Shown here piece by piece: positions 1,861-21,293 of a stretch of DNA of 32,000 bases (positions are counted from its first letter, which is position 1; every line of letters starts with the position of its first letter). Location: positions 857,362 through 889,361 of the forward strand of contig CAVUPS010000001.1 in NCBI GenBank assembly GCA_963743475.1. Reading direction: 5' to 3'. The notes beneath the pieces were generated by a model. It made no database searches, had not been told where the DNA came from, and saw nothing but the letters and a program-made list of their open reading frames with translations. The translations under genes and the position numbers were made by a program. This DNA is from an uncultured Solirubrobacterales bacterium. GTDB lineage: Bacteria > Actinomycetota > Thermoleophilia > Solirubrobacterales > Solirubrobacteraceae.

Positions 1861-2130
1861 ATGCGCATGTACGTGGCGAGCGATAGCAGCGCCTCGGCGC
1901 AGGCGCGTCGGCAGCTTGCGGCTCTGCGTGAGCGCTTCGGCGGGGGGGATTGGGAGGTCGAGGTCGTCGATGTGTTCGAGCAGCCCGCGCTCGCGGAGGC
2001 CGATCGTGTCCTCGCGACCCCGATTCTGATCCGGCTGCTTCCATCGCGGCGTCTGAGCGTGATCGGGGACTTTGCCGACTTGCAAGCGGTCGCGAACGCG
2101 CTCGATCTTCAACCGGAGGTGGCACGATGA
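1861..2130 (+). CDS. kaiB: KaiB-like circadian clock protein (thioredoxin-like fold), 89 aa
   Basis: The ATG at 1861 lies inside ORF 1699..2130. MRMYVASDSS...VDVFEQPALAEADRVLATPILIRLLPSRRLSVIGDF aligns by eye with S. elongatus KaiB (LKLYVAGNT...[36 protein letters not shown]). The stop TGA 2128-2130 overlaps the kaiC ATG 2127-2129 (ATGA). Confidence 0.85.
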   Translation: MRMYVASDSSASAQARRQLAALRERFGGGDWEVEVVDVFEQPALAEADRVLATPILIRLLPSRRLSVIGDFADLQAVANALDLQPEVAR

Positions 2131-3617
2131 CCCCTTCACCGGTGCAGCGGATCCACGTCGGTATCCCAGGGTTTGATGAGATTGTGCACGGCGGACTGCC
2201 GCGCGGTCGCAGTACCTTGATCGCGGGAGCGACGGGGACCGGCAAGACCGTGTTCGGCCTGCAGTTCCTGTGGGGCGGCGCGCAGCTGGGGGAGCCCGGG
2301 GTGATGGTGACGTTCGCCGAGCGCCCCGAGGATCTGATCGCGAACGTCGAGAGTTTCGGCTGGGATCTGGGCGGTCTTGTCAGTGACGGGCGTCTGGCGT
2401 TCGTGGACGCGACGCCGGAGATGGAGCTGCTCGTCAGCGGCCGGTTCGATCTCGGCGGGCTCACGGCGCGGATCGCTCACGCGCTCAGCGAGGTCGACGC
2501 CACGCGATTGTTTTTGGATCCGATCGACGCGCTGTTCGAGGAGTTCTCCAACGTGGTCGAGGTCCGGCGTTCGTTCGCGGCGATGTTACGCGCGCTGCGG
2601 CCGCTGGGCGCGACGGCGTTGATCGCGGCTGAGCGGCCGAACGAGAACGGCAGCGTCACGCGTTACGGCGCGGAGGAGTTCGCGGTCGACAACGTCATTG
2701 TGCTGCGCAACTCCCGCGAGGAGGAGCGTCGGCGCCGAACGGTCGAGGTCCTCAAGCTGCGAGGCGCCGATCATCACCGCGGCGAGTTCCCGTTCGTCAT
2801 CAACGCGAGCACTGGGGTCGAGATCGTGCCGTTTTCTCCGATCGAGGGTGATGACAGCGGGTCACCCGAGCGGATCTCGCTCGGAAACGCAGAACTCGAC
2901 GCGATGTGCGGCGGCGGGATGTACCGCGACGCCTTGATGATGATCACTGGCGCGACCGGTACGGGCAAGACGCTGATCGGCTTGCAGTTCATGGTCGCCG
3001 GGATCAAGGCCGGCGAGCGGGTGCTGTACCTGTCCTTCGAGGAGAGCCGCTGGCAGCTGGAGCGCAACGCCAACGCGTGGGGGATGGACCTCACGGGCTC
3101 CGGGCACGAGGGCAGCCTCGAGATCGTGTCGCGCTACCCCGCTCGCGTGGGGCTCGAGGACCTGCTCGTGGAGCTCAAGCACACGGTCGAGGAATTCGAC
3201 CCGACGCGACTGGTACTCGACAGCATCACCGCGGTCGAGCACAACGCGCCGCAGAACGCGTTTCGTGAGTTCAGTGTCGGGCTCAGCGGATTCCTCAAAG
3301 GGCGGGGTGTGGCGACGATGATGACGACGACGCTGCCGGACCTGCTCGGAGGCACGCACGCCACCGACCTGTATCTGTCGACGATCGCGGATGCGATCAT
3401 CGCGCTGCGCTACTTCGATCTCGACAGCCGCGTCAGGCGCGCGATCTTGGTGCTAAAGGTCCGCGGATCCAGGCACGCGAATGAGATGCACGAGTACGAG
3501 ATCCTCAGCACCGGCATGTCGGTGAAGGGACCGATCCAGGGGATCGGCGGAATCCTGGCCGGCCTGGCGCAGCCGTCGATCCTCTCCAACGGCGGCGCCA
3601 GCGCCTTGCAACGGTAA
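2127..3617 (+). CDS. kaiC: KaiC homologue, double RecA-like ATPase / autokinase, 496 aa
   Basis: The true start is the internal ATG at 2127 (MTPSPVQRIHVGIPGFDEIVHGGLP), with GGAGGTGG at 2115-2122 as RBS. There are two Walker A motifs, GATGTGKT (CI and CII). Other matching segments are SFGWDL / AWGMDL, RRRRTVEVLKLRG and ILVLKVRGSRH. The CII segment THATDLYLSTIADAII matches the S. elongatus phosphosite region SITDSHISTITDTII. Confidence 0.95.
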   Translation: MTPSPVQRIHVGIPGFDEIVHGGLPRGRSTLIAGATGTGKTVFGLQFLWGGAQLGEPGVMVTFAERPEDLIANVESFGWDLGGLVSDGRLAFVDATPEMELLVSGRFDLGGLTARIAHALSEVDATRLFLDPIDALFEEFSNVVEVRRSFAAMLRALRPLGATALIAAERPNENGSVTRYGAEEFAVDNVIVLRNSREEERRRRTVEVLKLRGADHHRGEFPFVINASTGVEIVPFSPIEGDDSGSPERISLGNAELDAMCGGGMYRDALMMITGATGTGKTLIGLQFMVAGIKAGERVLYLSFEESRWQLERNANAWGMDLTGSGHEGSLEIVSRYPARVGLEDLLVELKHTVEEFDPTRLVLDSITAVEHNAPQNAFREFSVGLSGFLKGRGVATMMTTTLPDLLGGTHATDLYLSTIADAIIALRYFDLDSRVRRAILVLKVRGSRHANEMHEYEILSTGMSVKGPIQGIGGILAGLAQPSILSNGGASALQR

Positions 3618-4321: not shown

Positions 4322-6442
4322 ATGGCAAGCCAGGCGACATTCGGAGCTCTGAGCGCGGCTCCGCCGCCCGCGATCCTGATCGTCGACGACGACGCGGGCA
4401 AGCGCCTGGCGATCCGGACGATCCTCGCGCCGCTGGGCCATGTGATCGTCGAGGCCGACTCCGGACGCGCCGCGCTGCGCGCGGTCCTGCGCGAGAGGTT
4501 TGCCTTGATCTTGATGGATGTCCGGATGCCGATCCTGGATGGGTATGAGACGGCGAGGCTGATCCGGGGGCGCAGCCAGACGCGGCTGACGCCGATCATT
4601 TTCGTTACGGGCTCGGTCGAGGAGCACCGGGGGGCGACGGAGACCGCTTATGCCAGCGGCGCGGTGGACTTCATCTTCACGCCGGTGGACCCGGATGTGC
4701 TGCGGATCAAGGTCTCGACCTATGTCGCTCTGTTCGTGCAGTCCCAGGAGCTGCAGATCCTCAACGCGGCGTTGCGCGACAGCGAGGTGCGCGCGCACGC
4801 GGTGCTTGAGAACGTGGTCGACGGGATCGTGACGGTCGACGAGAGGGGTCTGATCGAATCGTTTACCCGATCGGCGCGACGGCTGTTTGGCTACAGCGAG
4901 GAGGAGGTGATCGGGCAGCCGCTGGGGCTGATCATCGCGCCGGGCGAACACGACGCCCTGTCTGATCCCGTGCTGACGGGGAAGCGGCCGATCGAGGCGT
5001 TGGGTTGCCGCAAGGACGGCTCGTGGTTCCCGATCGAGGTGCAAACGAGCCAGATGCAGATCGGCGGGCGGACGGTGGAAATCGACAGCATCCGTGACAT
5101 CTCCGAGCGCAAGGCCTACACCGAGGCGCTTGGTCACCAGGCGCTCCACGACGCTCTGACCGGGCTGCCGAACCGGATCCTGTTCGCTGATCGCATGGAC
5201 CAGGCGATCGTGTCTGCCGAGCGTGCGGGCGAGCCGCGCGGTGTGCTGGTGATGGATCTGAACGGCTTCAAGCATGTCAATGACACGCTCGGACGCGATC
5301 GCGGTGACACGCTGCTCAGGGAGATCGGCAAGCGTCTGACGGACGGGTTGCGTGAGACCGACACAGTGGCGCGACTCGGTGGAGACGAGTTCGCGATCCT
5401 GCTCGACGGCGCCAGCGACCTGCCGGCCGCGGCGACGGCGGCCTGGAAGATCCAACAGGTGTGCGAGGCGCCATTCGTGATCGATGACGAGGTCGTGCGC
5501 GTGTCGACGAGCATCGGCATCGCCCTGTTTCCCGAGCACGGCAGAACCACGGCCGATCTGCTGCACCGCGCCGACCTGGCGATGTATGACGCCAAGCGAT
5601 CCGGCACCAGCTACGCCGTCTTTGACGCGGCGCACGCAAAGCAGATGGCACATTCGCTCGCGCTGCTGGCCGATCTGCGCGAGTGCGTCGCCCGCGAGGA
5701 ACTCGTCGTCTACTACCAGCCCCTGATCGACCTCGCGACCCGCAGGACCACCGGCGTCGAGGCGCTCGTCCGCTGGCGCCACCCCAAGCACGGACTCCTG
5801 CAACCCGGAAGCTTTTTGCCCCAGGCCGAGCGCACCCCACTGATCGCACCGCTGACGAGGTGGGTGCTCAACGACGCGCTGCGCCAACAGCAGCGCTGGC
5901 GCGGCGACGGTATCGACGTCACGATGGCCGTCAATATCTCCGCTCGCACGTTGAAACCCAACGGTGACTTGCCCGACACCGTCGCCGAGCTGTCCGACTT
6001 CTGGGGCATCGCACCCGACCGGCTGACCCTCGAGCTCACCGAGAGGACGCTGATCGAACCCGCCGCCCCCAACGTCCTGGCCCGTCTGCACAAGATGGGA
6101 GGCAAGGTGTCAATCGACGACTTCGGCACCGGATACTCCTCACTGGCCTACCTGAAGAACCTGCCGGTCGACCAGCTCAAGATCGATCAATCCTTCGTCC
6201 GAAACCTCGCTAGGGTCCCCGGCGACGCGGTCATCGTGCGCTCGACGATCGACCTCGCGCACAACCTCGGCATGACGGTCGTCGCCGAGGGCGTCGAGGA
6301 CGAGACCACGCTCGACTTCCTCGCCCAGTACGGATGCGACAGCGCCCAAGGCCACCTCTTCAGCCGCGCACTCACCGCCCAGGAGCTCACCCCCTGGCTC
6401 ACCGAGTCAGCCTACGCAGCACACCCCCCACCTCGCAACTAG
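4322..6442 (+). CDS. Response-regulator receiver - PAS - GGDEF - EAL protein (c-di-GMP synthesis/hydrolysis)
   Basis: REC: ILIVDDDAG...ALILMDVRMPILDGYE...IIFVTG. PAS: LENVVDGIVTVDERGLIESFTRSARRLFGYSEEEVIGQPL. GGDEF domain with an intact I-site and active site: RETD-TVARL-GGDEF. EAL domain: YYQPLIDL, GVEALVRW, SIDDFGTGYSSLAYL, VVAEGVE, AQGHLFS. Confidence 0.95.
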   Translation: MASQATFGALSAAPPPAILIVDDDAGKRLAIRTILAPLGHVIVEADSGRAALRAVLRERFALILMDVRMPILDGYETARLIRGRSQTRLTPIIFVTGSVEEHRGATETAYASGAVDFIFTPVDPDVLRIKVSTYVALFVQSQELQILNAALRDSEVRAHAVLENVVDGIVTVDERGLIESFTRSARRLFGYSEEEVIGQPLGLIIAPGEHDALSDPVLTGKRPIEALGCRKDGSWFPIEVQTSQMQIGGRTVEIDSIRDISERKAYTEALGHQALHDALTGLPNRILFADRMDQAIVSAERAGEPRGVLVMDLNGFKHVNDTLGRDRGDTLLREIGKRLTDGLRETDTVARLGGDEFAILLDGASDLPAAATAAWKIQQVCEAPFVIDDEVVRVSTSIGIALFPEHGRTTADLLHRADLAMYDAKRSGTSYAVFDAAHAKQMAHSLALLADLRECVAREELVVYYQPLIDLATRRTTGVEALVRWRHPKHGLLQPGSFLPQAERTPLIAPLTRWVLNDALRQQQRWRGDGIDVTMAVNISARTLKPNGDLPDTVAELSDFWGIAPDRLTLELTERTLIEPAAPNVLARLHKMGGKVSIDDFGTGYSSLAYLKNLPVDQLKIDQSFVRNLARVPGDAVIVRSTIDLAHNLGMTVVAEGVEDETTLDFLAQYGCDSAQGHLFSRALTAQELTPWLTESAYAAHPPPRN

Positions 6443-9811: not shown

Positions 9812-10510
9812 CTACTTCTTGGCCTGCTCGAAGTACGGGTTGGTGCCGGAGGCGTGGTCGGTGACGTCGACGACGCGGTTGATTTCGGGCACCGCCTGGG
9901 TGATGGCGACTTCGATGCCCTGGCTGAGGGTGACTGTGGCCATGCCGCAGCCCTGGCACCCTCCCCCTAGGCGTAGGTAGACGGTGGCGCCTTCGACGGC
10001 AGCGAGTTCGGCGTGTCCGCCGTGGCTGGCGATGGCGGGGTTGACGTCGCGGTCGAGCACCGCCATCACGCGACGCGCGAGATCGGTGTCCAGCCCGCCT
10101 GAGGGCGAGGGCCGAGGTGGACCCGGCGGGGGGCCGGGGCGGGCAGTTCCCGGGCTCATTGGCAGGGTCGGAAGTGGGACGGGCGGTCGAGAGGGTTTGT
10201 TCGGGTTGATGACCACGAAGCCGCCGCCCAGCCGGTTCTCGCTCCAGTCCACCGTGGCGCCGAGCAGCTTTGCGACGCTTTCGTGGGGCACCACGATGGC
10301 TAGATCACCCTGGTGCTGCACGGTGTCGCTGACGCGGACCTGAGTCTGCGGCTCCAGCGAAAGCGCGCAGACGTATTCGCCGTCGGCCGCGCCGGTGACC
10401 CGCACCGACAGGACGCAATCGCTCGGGTCGGGAGCGGCGGCGCGGAAGCCGCGCACGCGCTCGAGGGCTGACGCCGTGATGGCGAGGAGCGGTAGAGCTG
10501 CGTCGGCCAC
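9812..10510 (-). CDS. NfuA-like Fe-S cluster biogenesis protein (HesB/IscA-like N-domain, Pro-rich linker, Nfu C-domain)
   Basis: GTG start at 10510 (VADAALPLLAITASALERV). There is no Met before residue ~150, and any start further upstream would overlap the divergent gene. N-domain: ITASALERVRGF...VLSVRVTGAADGEYVCALSLE. Linker: NKPSRPPVPLPTLPMSPGTARPGPPPGPPRPSPSGG. Nfu domain: VNPAIASHGGHAELAAVEG...GGGCQGCGMATVTL. Confidence 0.8.
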   Translation of the reverse strand: MADAALPLLAITASALERVRGFRAAAPDPSDCVLSVRVTGAADGEYVCALSLEPQTQVRVSDTVQHQGDLAIVVPHESVAKLLGATVDWSENRLGGGFVVINPNKPSRPPVPLPTLPMSPGTARPGPPPGPPRPSPSGGLDTDLARRVMAVLDRDVNPAIASHGGHAELAAVEGATVYLRLGGGCQGCGMATVTLSQGIEVAITQAVPEINRVVDVTDHASGTNPYFEQAKK

Positions 10511-10527
10511 CGATCTACGATAGCGCC
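10511..10527. promoter_or_regulatory. 17-nt divergent intergenic region with two overlapping TANNNT -10-like hexamers, each 6 nt from a GTG start (candidate back-to-back leaderless promoters)
   Basis: Plus strand: TACGAT (10516-10521), then agcgcc, then GTG 10528. Minus strand: TATCGT (10522-10517), then agatcg, then GTG 10510. There is no room for a Shine-Dalgarno sequence on either side. Confidence 0.4.
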
Positions 10528-11775
10528 GTGGACCGCCTGCTCCTGATCCTGCCGTCGGCCACCTACCGGGCGCCGGACTTCCTGGCGGCAGCACGGGAGC
10601 TCGGCGTCGCGGTCACGGTCGCGTCCGAGCGCCGGGCGGCGATGTCGGCGGCGATGGGCGAACGTGCGCTCACCCTGCGGCTGTCGGACCCGGCAGTGGC
10701 GGCCGAGCAGATCGCCCAGCGTGCCCGGGAGACCCCGTTCGCTGCGGTCGTGGGCGTCGATGACCAGGGCGTGATGGCCGCCGCGCTGGGTGCCGAGCGC
10801 CTCGGCCTGCCCCACAACCCGCCGGCCGCCGTCGCCCGCACGCGCGACAAGGCGGCGATGCGCCGGGCGCTCGCGGAGGCCGGCGTCCCGCAACCGCGCT
10901 TCGCGCTGCTGCCCTATGGAGCCGACGTCGCGACGGTGGCGCGCGAGGTGGGCCTTCCCTGCGTCGTCAAGCCGCTGGGGCTGTCAGGCAGCCGGGGGGT
11001 GATCCGGGCGGATGACGGCGAGCAGGCGCGCTCGGCCGCCGAGCGCGTCCGGGGCATTCTCGCCGCCGCTCAGGAGCCGCCCGGCGCTCCGCTGCTGCTG
11101 GAGAGCTACCTGCCCGGCGCGGAGATGGCGATCGAGGGGCTGCTGCGCGGGGGCTGTCTGGAGGTGCTGGCAGTGTTCGACAAGCCCGACCCGCTCGAGG
11201 GGCCGTACTTCGAGGAGACGCTGTACGTGACGCCGTCGCGGCTGGCGACCGGCGTCCTGGCCGAGGTCGAGGCGGTCACTGCGCGGGCGGCGCGCGCGCT
11301 AGGGCTGCGGGAGGGACCGGTCCACGCCGAGCTGCGCGTGGACGGCGAGCGGGTGAGCGTCCTGGAGCTAGCGGCCCGGTCGATCGGCGGGCTGTGCTCT
11401 CGCGCGCTGCGCTTCGGTGCCGGCGTCAGCCTGGAGCAGGTGATCCTCCGCCACGCCTTGGGCCTCGGGCTCGAGGACCTGGCGCGGGAGTCGACGGCGT
11501 CTGGCGTGATGATGATCCCGATCCCCGAGGCTGGCGTGCTGCGCGCGGTCGAGGGGCAGGGGGACGCGCGGGCGGTGGAGGGCATCGGCGGGCTGGAGAT
11601 CACGATTGCCCGCGGCCGCGCCGTCGTGCCGCTGCCCGACGGCGACCGCTACCTAGGCTTCATATTCGCGCGCGCGGCGAGCGCCGACGCGGTCGAGCGC
11701 TCCCTGCGCTCCGCGCACGGCCGCCTACGGATCCGGATCGAGCCGCACGCGCCCGAGCCGGTCGCCGCGCGCTAG
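10528..11775 (+). CDS. ATP-grasp domain protein (carboxylate-amine/thiol ligase superfamily), substrate unknown
   Basis: MDRLLLILPSATYRAPDFLAAARELG pre-ATP-grasp domain. DKAAMRRALAEAGVPQP, LPCVVKPLGLSGSRGVIRADD, LLLESYLPGAEMAIEGLL and PVHAELRV...VLELAARSIGG follow the ATP-grasp layout. Confidence 0.8.
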   Translation: MDRLLLILPSATYRAPDFLAAARELGVAVTVASERRAAMSAAMGERALTLRLSDPAVAAEQIAQRARETPFAAVVGVDDQGVMAAALGAERLGLPHNPPAAVARTRDKAAMRRALAEAGVPQPRFALLPYGADVATVAREVGLPCVVKPLGLSGSRGVIRADDGEQARSAAERVRGILAAAQEPPGAPLLLESYLPGAEMAIEGLLRGGCLEVLAVFDKPDPLEGPYFEETLYVTPSRLATGVLAEVEAVTARAARALGLREGPVHAELRVDGERVSVLELAARSIGGLCSRALRFGAGVSLEQVILRHALGLGLEDLARESTASGVMMIPIPEAGVLRAVEGQGDARAVEGIGGLEITIARGRAVVPLPDGDRYLGFIFARAASADAVERSLRSAHGRLRIRIEPHAPEPVAAR

Positions 11776-11787
11776 CGTGGGTCACCC

Positions 11788-13194
11788 GTGCGCGTCCTGT
11801 TGATCTCCACCTACGAGCTGGGCCACCAGCCGTTGCACGTCGCGTCGCCGGCGGCCGCGCTGCGCCGCGCCGGGCACGATGTCCGCTGCCTGGATCTCAG
11901 CGTGCAGCCGTGGGACCACGGTGCGCTGGAATGGGCGCAGGCGGTCGGCTTCTCGGTGCCGATGCACACCGCCATGCGGCTGGCGCTCAGCGCCGGCCGC
12001 CGAGTGCGCCGCGAGCACCCCGGGCTGCCGATCTGCTTCTACGGGCTCTACGCCACGGTCAGCCGCGAGCTGGTAGAGCGTGAGCTCGCCGCGCGCGCGA
12101 TCGCTGGCGAGTACGAGCCGGCGCTCACGGCCTGGGTGGACGAGCTGGCGGCCCCGTGCGCGACCGCCCAGGCCGCCGGACGGCCGATCATCCACCTGCA
12201 GCGCGGCACCTTCGACCCGCCGGCGCGCGAGCTGCTGCCCGGACTCGAGCGCTACGCCCGCCTGGCGGTGGGCGGGGAGGAGCGGCTGGTCGGGTACGTC
12301 GAGGCCAGCCATGGGTGCGTGCATCGCTGCCGGCATTGCCCTGTCCCCGCCGTCTACGACGGGCGCATCCGCATCGTGCAGGCCGAGACCGTCCTGCGCG
12401 ACATCGAGCACCTGGCGGACATGGGCGCGCGGCACATCACGTTCGGCGATCCCGACTTCCTCAACGGCTGGCGCCACTCTCTGGCGATCGTACGTGCGCT
12501 CCACGAGCGCCGACCGGAGCTGACCTTCGACTGCACGACGAAGGTCGAGCACGTGCTCGAGCACGCCGACGTGTGGGATCAGATGGCCGCCTCGGGCTGC
12601 CTATTCGTTGTCAGCGCGCTGGAGAGCGTCAACGACGAGATCCTCGCCCGCCTCGACAAGGGCCACACCACCGCGCAAGCGGTGCAAGCCCTCGACCTGC
12701 TGCGCGAGCACGGAATCGAGACCAGGCCCTCGTTTATGCCCTTCACGCCGTGGACGACCCCGGCTGACGTGCTAGACATCGTCGACTTCGTCGCCGCGCA
12801 CGATCTGGTCGCCAACGTCGACCCGGTGCAGTACACGATCCGGCTGCTCGTGCCCGAGGACTCGCTACTGCTGGCGAGCGAGGACCTGCGCGAGCACCTC
12901 GGCCCCTACCAAGCCCAACGACTCAGCTACCCGTGGCGCTCAGCGGACCCAACAGCCGACCGGCTGCAAGGCCGCCTCAGCGCGCTGGTCCAACAGAGCG
13001 CCGCCGCGGAGGAAGCAATTGGCCTGACGTTCGCGCGCATCCGCACGGCGGTGCGCGAGGCCACCGGCGAAGCGGACGGCCCCGAGCCCGAGGCCATCCC
13101 CATGGGATCGACCGAGGGGAGGCCACGGCTCACCGAGCCGTGGTTCTGTTGAGCGGAGCCCACCGAGGACCAGTTCGGTCCTCTCACAGCGTGA
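11788..13194 (+). CDS. B12-binding-domain-type radical SAM protein with a C-terminal C-U-A-E-P tail; predicted selenoprotein (in-frame TGA 13150-13152 read as Sec), 468 aa if recoded
   Basis: GTG start 12 nt after the ATP-grasp stop. N-terminus MRVLLISTYELGHQPLHVASPAAALRRAGHDV. Radical SAM cluster motif EASHGCVHRCRHCPV (CxxxCxxC). The ORF track ends at TGA 13150-13152, but the codons read TGG TTC TGT TGA GCG GAG CCC = W F C U A E P. Thirteen sense codons (AEPTEDQFGPLTA) follow before TGA 13192-13194. I recall a RefSeq/NCBIfam family named CUAEP/CCAEP-tail radical SAM (seleno)protein; that is from memory and unverified. Confidence 0.8.
13165..13183 (+). other. Candidate bacterial SECIS hairpin (could also be a shared terminator hairpin of the convergent gene pair)
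   Basis: GAGGACC (13165-13171), loop AGTTC, GGTCCTC (13177-13183): a perfect 7-bp stem. It begins 12 nt after the UGA, and the apical loop containing GU sits about 20 nt after the UGA. The hairpin ends exactly at the stop codon of the convergent DsrE-like gene (13184-13186). Confidence 0.5.
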
Positions 13195-13549
13195 TCACAT
13201 GATCCGGCGGGTCTCCCGCCAGCGCCGCGTAGAGGTCGGGGAAGCAACCGACCCGCACGCCGACGACCGTTCCCGCCGGCAGCGCCGCGCCGATCTCCCC
13301 CTCGGCCAAGCCGCGCTCCAACGCGCACTGGTCACAGAGCATCAGCAGCATTCCGCGCTGGGCGGCCACTCGCCCGAGGCGCTCGCCCACCGGATCGCCC
13401 GCTCGGAGCAGGTAGGTGTTGTCGTCAAAGAAAAACATTCCGACAACCTCAACGCCGTGCGTGCCCTGCTCCAGCTGCGGAAGGATCATCCTCCCGAGCT
13501 TGTAGCTGGCCGTGTGGCCAGAGGTGGAGAACACGTAGGCAACCTTCAT
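13184..13549 (-). CDS. DsrE/TusD-like sulfur(selenium?)-relay family protein, ~121 aa (alternative GTG start at 13582)
   Basis: MKVAYVFSTSGHTASYKLGRMILPQLEQGTHGVEVVGMFFFDDNTYLL is a typical DsrE-fold N-terminus. The conserved Cys segment LLMLCDQCALERGL is present. The 3' end overlaps the extended rSAM ORF by 11 nt, in convergent orientation. Confidence 0.7.
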   Translation of the reverse strand: MKVAYVFSTSGHTASYKLGRMILPQLEQGTHGVEVVGMFFFDDNTYLLRAGDPVGERLGRVAAQRGMLLMLCDQCALERGLAEGEIGAALPAGTVVGVRVGCFPDLYAALAGDPPDHVITL

Positions 13550-13930
13550 CCCGGCGGGAGAGTAGCCGGAAGCCGCGCGCACCCGTTGCCGGTGGTGGTC
13601 CCGGAGGTCACATGACCATCACTCCCCGGTCAGAAGAGCCGCACCCGCGTCGTCAACGGCCCTGCCGCAGTCGCGTGGTCCCGGCAGCCACGGCCGCCGT
13701 ATCGGGACGATCGGTTTCGACGGGACGCGATCGCGCGGACCCGGGCGCCGCGACGATTCCTTTTCTTCTCGCGCCGGCGGGCAGCGCGCTACCGCAATGG
13801 CGACGTTTCAGCCGTCCAACTCTACGCGCGGGACCCCGACGAGGTTCGTTGTCACGCTTCCGAGGGAGTCAAGCGGCGTGCTGCGCGGGAGCCACTTGCG
13901 CCGTTCGGTTGCCTTGGCCGCAACCCTTAG

Positions 13931-13967
13931 ACCGCCGGGGCGACCACTTCCGTGACGCCCCGGCGGT
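13931..13967 (-). other. Very stable hairpin: 12-bp G+C-rich stem plus a 3-bp inner stem, capped on the minus strand by a GGAA (GNRA) tetraloop
   Basis: ACCGCCGGGGCG (13931-13942) pairs with CGCCCCGGCGGT (13956-13967). Inner CAC/GTG stem; the loop reads TTCC on plus and GGAA on minus. Function unknown; strand assignment rests only on the GNRA reading. Confidence 0.3.
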
Positions 13968-14219
13968 GGTTGAGGGAGGAGAGGGTGCTGCATCCGCCGG
14001 CGAGATATGAGGCCGGCGAATCTTCCGGCTCCTAGGCGCTGTCCTGGATGGCCCCGCGCGCGAGAAGCTCCTGCACCGATGAACGCGGGGGAGCGTTCGT
14101 GAGCGCTGACAATCGGGGACCGCGAGAGAACCTCTGCGCCCTGAACGGACCGACGTCCCTTGACGGCAACCGAATGCATGCTCTGCGCGGGTCTATTGCT
14201 CAGCGTCGTCTGCGTTTGG

Positions 14220-14561
14220 TCAGGCGGCCTTGAGCTCGGCCGGCGGCGGCGGTCCACACTGTGAGATGTCACGAGCGATACGCGTTGCGCTTGTCTGCTT
14301 CAAGCGGCCGGTGTCTATAAGCGCGCGACACAGACGCTCGACATCCTGCAGCGCCTCGCGTGCTCCGTCGTCCTGTAGCAGGTCGTGGCTGAAGAGGACG
14401 CTGTCCGCAGCGTGGCGGATGGCGTCCTGCTCTCGGCTGCCCAGCGTGCTCGCGCCCAGCTCGTTGAGAGTCTGGATGACTCGTCGATAGGCGTGGGCAC
14501 GTTCACGGGTCATTGTGCACCGAGCGGTAGAAGCCCGGGGTTGCGATGCGGCCATGATCAT
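14220..14561 (-). CDS. Hypothetical small helical protein, ~113 aa
   Basis: ATG at 14561 is preceded by GAGGAAG with 8-nt spacing. The alternative ATG at 14513 has no RBS. The sequence ERAHAYRRVIQTLNELGAS...ALQDVERLCRALIDTGRL looks protein-like, but I do not recognise a family. Confidence 0.5.
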   Translation of the reverse strand: MIMAASQPRASTARCTMTRERAHAYRRVIQTLNELGASTLGSREQDAIRHAADSVLFSHDLLQDDGAREALQDVERLCRALIDTGRLKQTSATRIARDISQCGPPPPAELKAA

Positions 14562-14976
14562 CGCTGCTACTTCCTCTGTCTTTAGCCGATTGACTAAGGA
14601 TCGGGGCGCAGTTTCATACGTGTGGCCAGCGTGCGGTCGAGTTCGTGGCACGGTCCGATGGCGCGCCTCGCGACGAATGCGAGCGCCAACGTCGACGTTC
14701 CCGCACGTCTGCGCCGACCCACCCGCGGCCGTAGGCGACCGCGGCGTCGGACGCCTTCTAATCTAAGGTAAGCGCGGAAAGCGCGACCCTGGTACGTGCG
14801 CTTCAAGTCGCCGGGCCGCGGCGCCGGATGGTGTCTGCGGAGGGGCTGCGCGCTGCGAAGAACGTGCCTGGGGGAAGAGGATCGTGGGCCGAACGTTGGC
14901 CACTTGTCCATGTCGCAACCGCGCCCTATGGATCAGGCTTCCGCCTGGTGGCACAGTTACGAGGAAAGGAGCGGCG

Positions 14977-19937: not shown

Positions 19938-20297
19938 AACGCTCTGTTCGCCGGCACCGTCGCGATCCCTGCCGATTCTCACGCCGGGTCGCGTTCCACG
20001 GCGTCGGGGTCTGGTGCTGCTGCGCCGCCCGCGGGCCTCAGTGGCCGGCGGCGGTGCACACCAAACCGTGCGCGTGGCAGTGGCCGCGCGGTGTGTGGCC
20101 TTGAGGCGGCGTGCGAGGGCTCAGAGCGAGCCCGAGCCAGCGCGCTCGCTCGCGGTCAAGCATCGCGACATCGCCCCCGAACTGCAACCTTGGGATCGAT
20201 CCGGTCGGGCTCGGCGCGCGTTCCAGCCTGAAACGTCGCGAGCGTGCCGCGCGGCACGTGGCACCATGTGCCACCGCATGACCAACCAGCGAGTCAG

Positions 20298-21293
20298 GTG
20301 GAGCACGTGGAGCTGCTGATCGCGAACAACCCCGACCGGGACTCGCGGCTGCCGTTCCTGCTGCGGCTGCCGATCGGCGGCGGGATGGTGTTCCGCACGT
20401 CGGGGACGTGGCCGCGTACCCGAGCGCTGTACTGCCACCCCATCCCGCTCGACGAGTGGCCGCAGGCGCCGGAGATCGTCGACCGGGCCGCGGTCCGGTC
20501 GTGCGTGCGGCGCGGCGCGGCCATCGACCTGGTCCTCGACCGCGCCCGGGAGAACCGCTCGCAGATCGTGTTCACCACCGCGCGTGGCCGCGATGTCGTG
20601 TTCTGGCAGTCGCCCCGAACGCGCAGGCAGGCGCGCCCGAACGTGCGCATCCCGACCGCCCAGGCCGGCGGGATCCCCGAGCTCGAGATCATCGTCGACT
20701 CCCACGAGCAATACCCGTTCCGCTTCGCGTCCCAACAGGTCCGGACGATGCGACGGGCGCTGCCATGCGGCGACTACGGGCTCACCCTCAACGGGAGGCT
20801 GATCGCGTCCGTCGAGCGAAAGTCCCTGCCCGACCTGGTCGCCAGCCTGACCAGCGGGAAGCTGCGCTATGCGGTCGCAGAGCTGGCGGCGCTACCCCGG
20901 GCGGCGGTCGTGGTCGAGGATCGCTACTCGGCCGTGTTCAAGCTGACCCGCGTGCGACCGGCCCAGGTAGCCGACGGGCTCGCGGAGATCCAGATCCGGT
21001 GGCCCGCCGTACCGATCCTGTTCGCGGAGACGCGTCAACTGGCCGAGGAGTGGACGTACCGGTTCCTCGCCGCGGCCCGCCTGTGGGCTGACACCGAACC
21101 GGCCGCGATCGACCGACTGCCTCCTCTAAACGGTCCGACCGCGACCGACCTCGACCGGGCGCCGTCCGCACCCAACCCCTCGACCGCCGAGGTACGCGCC
21201 TGGGCACGGGCCAACGGCCTGACCATCCCCGACCGGGGAAGACTCAGGCCCGACGTCTGGGCGGCGTGGCGACGCGCCAACGCCCGCACATAG
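20298..21293 (+). CDS. Three-part protein: unknown N-domain, ERCC4/XPF-Mus81-type nuclease domain, and an Lsr2-like C-terminal DNA-binding domain
   Basis: Start is uncertain (GTG 20298 or 20307, ATG 20244). ERCC4 motifs: LEIIVDSHEQYPF, LPCGDYGL, ASVERKSLPDLVASL, AAVVVEDRY. The C-terminus STAEVRAWARANGLTIPDRGRLRPDVWAAWRRAN matches the Lsr2 DNA-binding domain pattern (IRxWAxxNGxxVxxRGRIxxxVxxAY), including the RGR motif. Confidence 0.8.
   Translation: MEHVELLIANNPDRDSRLPFLLRLPIGGGMVFRTSGTWPRTRALYCHPIPLDEWPQAPEIVDRAAVRSCVRRGAAIDLVLDRARENRSQIVFTTARGRDVVFWQSPRTRRQARPNVRIPTAQAGGIPELEIIVDSHEQYPFRFASQQVRTMRRALPCGDYGLTLNGRLIASVERKSLPDLVASLTSGKLRYAVAELAALPRAAVVVEDRYSAVFKLTRVRPAQVADGLAEIQIRWPAVPILFAETRQLAEEWTYRFLAAARLWADTEPAAIDRLPPLNGPTATDLDRAPSAPNPSTAEVRAWARANGLTIPDRGRLRPDVWAAWRRANART

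Follow-up and report, generated by a model that had tools for sequence, protein, structure and literature searches.

An in-frame UGA followed by a predicted SECIS hairpin very probably encodes selenocysteine in a CUAEP/CCAEP-tail radical SAM gene of a Solirubrobacterales bacterium

The 32,000-nt stretch of DNA analyzed in this study (hereafter the window; positions 857,362 to 889,361 of contig CAVUPS010000001.1, GenBank assembly GCA_963743475.1, from an uncultured Solirubrobacterales bacterium) carries a radical S-adenosylmethionine (SAM) gene with a UGA codon in frame close to its 3' end, followed by a hairpin that we read as a predicted bacterial selenocysteine insertion sequence (SECIS). 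The reading frame is opened by a GTG at position 11788 and runs on the plus strand to ...LTEPWFC, where it meets the TGA at 13150-13152. The codons at 13141-13161 are TGG TTC TGT TGA GCG GAG CCC (W F C * A E P), with TGT TGA, the codons of the proposed dipeptide of cysteine and selenocysteine (Sec), at 13147-13152. Behind the TGA, the frame stays open for a further 13 codons, AEPTEDQFGPLTA (13153-13191), up to a second TGA at 13192-13194, which we regard as the true stop. Read in this way, the full gene occupies 11788-13194 and comprises 468 codons plus stop, in agreement with NF040546, Pfam and homologue lengths, and the protein ends in the tail WFC-U-AEPTEDQFGPLTA, preceded by LTEP. The hairpin lies at 13165-13183 of the same strand and begins 12 nt after the UGA. 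Its arms, GAGGACC (13165-13171) and GGTCCTC (13177-13183; GGUCCUC in the RNA), form seven perfect pairs around the apical loop AGTTC (13172-13176; AGUUC). Counted from the U of the UGA as base 1, the stem extends from +15 to +33, and the G and U of the loop are bases 24 and 25. An earlier note, written from the sequence letters alone, had pointed out the UGA, the open codons behind it and the perfect 7-bp hairpin, and the sequence agrees with it in every detail; the family name that it gave, CUAEP/CCAEP-tail radical SAM (seleno)protein, exists as NF040546.

The read-through product, with X in place of the UGA, scores 559 bits with NF040546 against a curated cutoff of 500, and the match covers residues 3-464 of the protein and positions 1-467 of the 468 in the profile. 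Pfam recognizes the radical SAM core (PF04055, 72.9 bits) and an N-terminal B12-binding-like domain (PF02310). The CX3CX2C motif of the radical SAM cluster corresponds to C177, C181 and C184, which are invariant in an alignment of 30 sequences (A1). The only further invariant Cys in this alignment is the first Cys of the tail, next to which stands either Cys or Sec. This set of cysteines makes an auxiliary cluster unlikely. Judged by profile and motifs, the window protein can be assigned to the CUAEP/CCAEP-tail family. This family and its selenocysteine have been described (Haft 2022, bioRxiv 10.1101/2022.07.06.499078) and are held in NCBIfam. The Sec reading is thus already known at the family level, and we are dealing with a catalogued family rather than with a discovery. 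Literature searches for CUAEP, CCAEP and RCCLKC returned no functional study of the family.

The 120 best database matches are 84-100% identical to the window protein, and those that are named come from metagenome-assembled genomes of Solirubrobacteraceae. As many as 107 of them have ...EPWFC as their C-terminus, while the remaining 13 are full length (12 of 468 amino acids, one of 464) and read ...EPWFCCAEPTE[DG]QFGP[LV]T[AK]. Homologues that are 84-90% identical and have Cys at the position of the UGA end in ...WFCCAEPTEDQFGPLTA, which matches the read-through of the window, and the tail of the window protein is identical to those of P0083, P0085, P0093, P0103 and P0109. Cys-type homologues of the close clade also end at the same residue as the window gene does when terminated at 13192-13194. 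The same split is seen in the broad family at the 50% identity level, in which the tails either halt at W[FY]C or run on as CCAEPTxxQ. The NCBI record MGO9497760.1 bears the family name yet is only 454 amino acids long, indicating that it is truncated at the UGA. One homologue, P0108 (541 amino acids, 92% identical), ends in neither WFC nor the CCAEP tail and has about 90 extra low-complexity residues, probably owing to a frameshift near the 3' end in its assembly.

We then compared the window with 82 further loci, two of which were fetched by exact protein (L001 and L002) and 80 of which came from a scan of species-representative genomes. These 83 loci stem from at least seven phyla and include Actinomycetota, Chloroflexota, Acidobacteriota, Gemmatimonadota, KSB1, Nitrospirota, Methylomirabilota and others. 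The codon at the Sec position is TGA in 38 loci (37 fetched genomes and the window; Sec loci) and TGC or TGT in 45 (Cys loci), so that an in-frame UGA aligns to Cys codons of orthologues, as expected of a gene with a bacterial SECIS element. The C-[U/C]-A-E-P motif, encoded by TGT TGA GCG GAG CCC at 13147-13161 in the window, is common to all 83 loci, with [AST]EP in frame after the codon and TxxQ mostly continuing it. The entropies at the three positions of the codons behind the UGA are 0.47/0.18/1.38 for GCN, 0/0/0.30 for GAG, 0/0/1.61 for CCN and 0.35/0.18/1.35 for ACN. Variation is thus concentrated at third codon positions, and the region looks like translated sequence. A neighbour-joining tree requires at least 12 switches between Sec and Cys.

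The hairpin is tied to the Sec loci. At least six of the seven pairs are present in register (+15 to +21 with +27 to +33 from the U of the UGA) in 35 of the 38 Sec loci versus 2 of the 45 Cys loci, and the minimum free energy of the segment is -12.9 kcal/mol in the former versus -7.9 kcal/mol in the latter. In the ungapped alignment A2, 92% of the cells are paired, and changes on both sides occur in five of the seven pairs. Double-change cells number 36, compared to 12.2 +/- 2.9 after shuffling, and none of the 500 shuffles reached the observed value; when the 3' arm was slid as a control, pairing fell to 27-61%. RNAalifold independently recovered the inner six pairs of the stem from the same alignment. 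The loop reads AGUU[CGU] in 36 of 38 Sec loci and its G is invariant (38/38), and CAA is found in eight Cys loci; loop GU occurs in 36/38 Sec loci versus 11/45 Cys loci. The requirement for the RNA structure accounts for the retention of Q-[FL]-G-[PS]-[LV] by Sec-type proteins in the region of the hairpin, where Cys-type proteins have diverged to QLAPL or QLASV. A covariance model (R1) gave 44-70 bits for Sec loci versus mostly 9-31 bits for Cys loci; it was built from Sec loci and is therefore supportive only. Three Cys-type loci retain a largely intact hairpin, namely L002 (7357-7401, 55 bits), L080 (3498-3542, 45 bits) and L069 (3951-3995, 41 bits). The first of these is a relative with 88% identity, the same synteny and two mismatches in the stem. 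The three look like recent Sec-to-Cys conversions with decaying, fossil SECIS elements. A permissive Rfam search of 12900-13400 returned chance matches only and no matching model. Taken together, pairing tied to TGA, covariation and the loop GU argue that the hairpin is a bacterial SECIS element. The checks proposed in the earlier note, as far as they could be applied to the window and its relatives, support its reading: in homologues, the position holds Cys or TGA, and AEP and the downstream residues are conserved at the protein level. The GU-loop hairpin follows the TGA rather than the convergent gene downstream, and without a T-run it does not resemble a terminator. Gene callers cut the protein to 454 rather than 468 residues.

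In our view, the UGA at 13150-13152 is very probably a selenocysteine codon. While the ribosome sits on the UGA, the mRNA hairpin would recruit SelB carrying Sec-tRNA(Sec). Translation would then continue for 13 codons to the real stop at 13192, giving a product of 468 residues with a Cys-Sec pair in its C-terminal tail.

Several points weigh against this interpretation. The single-sequence fold of the local region is not significant (z = -1.6) in this G+C-rich sequence, and the case therefore rests on the comparison with other genomes. In this comparison, Sec and Cys loci share ancestry, and the p-values for the free energies (Mann-Whitney, p = 2.6e-9) and for loop GU (Fisher, p = 1.9e-11) overstate independence; despite the shared ancestry, we consider the signal real because of the many Sec/Cys switches and the slid controls. 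The hairpin also sits in coding sequence, so that part of its conservation could be at the protein level. Furthermore, selA, selB, selD and tRNA-Sec were not found within the 32-kb window by profile scans, ARAGORN and tblastn. With ARAGORN, the window yielded no tRNA at all and the 82 related loci no tRNA-Sec, and the only match of the E. coli SelA, SelB and SelD proteins in tblastn against the window and all loci was SelD in L078. This selD homologue (L078:3299-4216, minus strand; 37% identity to E. coli SelD, E = 5e-60) adjoins the ATP-grasp gene in a metagenome-assembled genome of Blastocatellia, whose own radical SAM gene is of the Cys type while its closest relatives are of the Sec type. 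Selenium incorporation experiments on the NF040546 family were not found in the literature searched, nor was anything relevant on Sec use in Solirubrobacterales or Thermoleophilia.

Other explanations of the UGA have to be weighed against these data. If it were a true stop, the protein would end in ...WFC and the hairpin would be a bidirectional terminator or an RNA-stabilizing stem between convergent genes. The hairpin does lie precisely in the interval bounded by the UGA and by the stop codon (13184-13186) of the convergent DsrE-like gene, and terminators with poor U-tracts are common in high-GC Actinomycetota. Nevertheless, Cys-type homologues read through into the same 13-residue tail, and variation past the UGA keeps a 3-nt periodicity. 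The hairpin is moreover kept in Sec loci without a DsrE-like gene (for example L006-L012), and among Cys loci with such a gene (for example L002, L018, L022 and L023) it has decayed or is missing. Finally, there is no T-run, and a terminator scan of 12800-13800 does not flag 13165-13183 on either strand. Overall, we regard termination at this UGA as extremely unlikely. Alternatively, the UGA might be read through by a near-cognate tRNA inserting Cys or Trp, with the hairpin as a generic stimulator. Downstream hairpins can stimulate read-through, and neither a tRNA nor selA, selB or selD was found in the window. At this position, however, UGA is exchanged for Cys codons and for nothing else, as is characteristic of selenoproteins. 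The G of the loop is invariant and GU nearly so at a spacing known for SelB-dependent elements, and the curated NCBIfam entry treats the family as a selenoprotein; we thus regard near-cognate read-through as very unlikely.

A nonsense mutation or a sequencing error in a Cys codon, which would make the gene a pseudogene or an assembly artefact, has a practically negligible chance of being the explanation. A change of TGT or TGC to TGA takes a single base, and the window apparently derives from a metagenome-assembled genome. However, TGA recurs in 38 of the 83 loci, 107 of the 120 closest proteins end at this codon, and a co-varying hairpin accompanies it; the recurrence of the TGA across independent assemblies excludes error and pseudogene formation. 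TGA is an ordinary stop in 6 of the 16 other Pfam-supported genes of the window, indicating that the genetic code is standard and that UGA is not reassigned genome-wide. Checking each of the 17 listed genes for an in-frame extension past its stop revealed no other selenoprotein candidate in the window.

The radical SAM gene is part of a conserved arrangement. An ATP-grasp ligase of the L-amino-acid-ligase type (10528-11775, plus strand; Pfam ATP-grasp_4, LAL_C2 and ATPgrasp_N) is encoded 12 nt upstream, and its nearest solved structure is the L-amino acid ligase BL00235 (3VOT, 118 bits); it is also near the dipeptide ligase BacD. The two genes share one reading frame and are parted only by TAG and four codons, a spacing that is equal in L001 and L002. 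Divergent from the ATP-grasp gene lies a gene for an NfuA-like Fe-S carrier (9812-10594, minus strand; PF01106, with TIGR03341 NfuA below its cutoff), which consists of a degenerate A-type N-terminal domain and an Nfu domain with CQGC. The longest open reading frames of these two divergent genes share 67 nt at their 5' ends (10528-10594), compared to a gap of only about 17 nt in the gene calls of the close relatives L001 and L002. Thus, either the coding sequences contain the promoters or the starts are wrongly placed, and the true start of the NfuA-like gene is probably near 10510. In tblastn searches over the 83 loci, the ATP-grasp gene was found in 70 and the Nfu-domain gene in 68, usually in the order seen in the window, that is the NfuA-like gene on the minus strand, then the ATP-grasp and radical SAM genes on the plus strand, 12 nt apart. 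This cassette (9812-13194 in the window), which is present in about 70 of 83 loci and spans at least seven phyla, suggests a small-molecule pathway. A system for ribosomally synthesized and post-translationally modified peptides was considered and rejected, since the gaps of 12 and about 17 nt within the cassette leave no room for a precursor and no conserved small open reading frame is present.

On the other side, a gene for a DsrE/SaoD-family protein with CDQC and one further Cys (13184-13582, minus strand; NF040913 "SaoD/DsrE family protein", 191 bits against a cutoff of 152) converges on the radical SAM gene. It shares 11 nt with the extension (13184-13194), and its stop codon directly adjoins the SECIS stem. 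The gene is present in only 14 of the 83 loci, together with both Sec- and Cys-type radical SAM genes, and is a lineage-specific accessory. In L001 (7509-9775), a relative with 93% identity, truncation has left about 71-89 amino acids of the DsrE-like protein, and a Transposase_mut gene (PF00872) lies a few hundred bases away. A DUF169 gene (PF02596) adjoins the cassette in 18 loci (for example L020:3254-3979), mainly of Chloroflexota and Acidimicrobiia. About 1 kb downstream of the DsrE-like gene (13612-14651), the open reading frames have no Pfam or NCBIfam match and no tblastn counterpart in the 82 related loci. Elsewhere, the window encodes a KaiC-like double ATPase (1950-3617), a receiver-PAS-GGDEF-EAL protein (4322-6442) and an ERCC4 nuclease that has, unusually, a C-terminal Lsr2 DNA-binding domain (20244-21293).

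As to the function of the enzyme, the second-best NCBIfam match of the window protein is ArsL (NF040542; 281 bits, E = 1.9e-83, residues 3-393), followed by a third-best match of 64 bits. The ArsL score remains below the curated cutoff of 450 bits, and the family is therefore a sister of ArsL and not ArsL itself. Among characterized enzymes, ArsL is its only close relative. ArsL, which acts in arsinothricin biosynthesis, cleaves SAM to methylthioadenosine and a 3-amino-3-carboxypropyl (ACP) species and joins the latter to As(III), which it holds through the three Cys of its C-terminal RCCLKC tail. By analogy, the Cys-Sec tail of the window protein would bring a soft heteroatom substrate to the [4Fe-4S] site at which SAM is cleaved; alternatively, it would act as a redox-active selenenylsulfide arm. 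The ATP-grasp partner would ligate the amino-acid product into a dipeptide, and the NfuA-like partner would serve in delivery or repair of the cluster. We propose this three-step function, consisting of heteroatom presentation for ArsL-like ACP transfer, dipeptide ligation and cluster servicing by Nfu, with low confidence. That the cassette encodes an undescribed, widespread pathway in which ACP is transferred onto an S, Se or As-like atom held by the Cys-Sec tail and the resulting non-proteinogenic product is ligated to a dipeptide is doubtful and is put forward as a tentative model. On the side of the substrate, the analogy to ArsL is weak: the ArsL cutoff is not reached, the tail offers two ligands compared to three, and no ars genes are nearby. 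Neither arsM nor an ars operon was found in the vicinity, and none of the families recurring in at least 10 loci, namely the NfuA-like, ATP-grasp, DUF169 and DsrE-like genes, is arsenic-related according to Pfam and NCBIfam; neighbour clusters present in at most eight loci were read as sequences only.

A redox role of the tail, as in thioredoxin reductase, represents a serious alternative. In that case, the enzyme would form the normal 5'-deoxyadenosyl radical like other class-B-like radical SAM enzymes, and the Cys-Sec tail would be a thioredoxin-reductase-like redox arm that provides electrons or resolves a disulfide, instead of a substrate site. The GCUG of mammalian thioredoxin reductase is likewise a Cys-Sec pair in a flexible C-terminal tail. 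In the AlphaFold2 model of the Cys-type protein P0083 (predicted local distance difference test score of 92, tail 77-79), the architecture is class-B-like and the fold is closest to AprD4, OxsB, MgmA and TsrM, which is in line with such a role, as is the presence of only two chalcogen ligands in the tail. A sequence search of the PDB returned no close relative of the window protein and no structure of ArsL. What speaks against the redox arm is the score of 281 bits for ArsL versus at most 65 bits for any enzyme forming 5'-deoxyadenosine, and the clustering of CU motifs in proteins handling metals or metalloids noted by Haft (bioRxiv 10.1101/2022.07.06.499078). Overall, we judge the redox arm possible, although somewhat unlikely.

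The data on the Sec codon bear directly on annotation, in that the gene model should be lengthened from 454 to 468 codons. Since 107 of the 120 closest proteins are truncated at the UGA, some of them bearing the family name, most deposited sequences lack the proposed Cys-Sec pair. To the known Sec reading, this study adds a SECIS consensus with comparative support (7-bp stem, loop AGUU[CGU], 12 nt after the UGA), the frequency of truncation and the three-gene cassette. The passages of Haft (2022) that we consulted mention neither the SECIS consensus nor the rate of Sec/Cys switching nor the NfuA-like/ATP-grasp/radical SAM cassette. The family is widespread in soil phyla and a sister of ArsL; starting points for its biochemistry are the natural Cys-type orthologues, whose expression needs no Sec machinery, the SECIS consensus, and the conserved ligase and Nfu partners.

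Comparison with known systems places these features in context. The selenocysteine-assisted organometallic (SAO) system with its SaoD protein (Haft 2022) resembles the locus in that the DsrE-like neighbour has CxxC and a further Cys and in that CU motifs are shared with SAO proteins. In contrast, no other sao genes are present, and the neighbour scores 120 bits with the SaoD model NF040732, below the cutoff of 169. ArsL agrees with the window protein in its domain layout and in having a C-terminal tail rich in Cys, but the tail of the window protein is C-[U/C]-AEPTxxQ (WFC-U-AEPT) and not RCCLKC, giving two chalcogen ligands instead of the three of ArsL. The predicted SECIS element can be set beside that of E. 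coli fdhF, whose loop is G23/U24. Both are hairpins directly 3' of an in-frame UGA within the coding region, with an apical-loop GU about 23-25 nt from the U. The window element differs in its shorter stem of seven perfect pairs without a conserved bulged U, in its loop AGUUN, and in leaving only 13 codons before the true stop, so that it constrains the residues E-x-Q-F-G-P-L. Within NF040546, finally, the window protein does not differ at the family level, as the CX3CX2C motif, the B12-binding-like N-terminus and the WFC-U-AEP tail are all shared.

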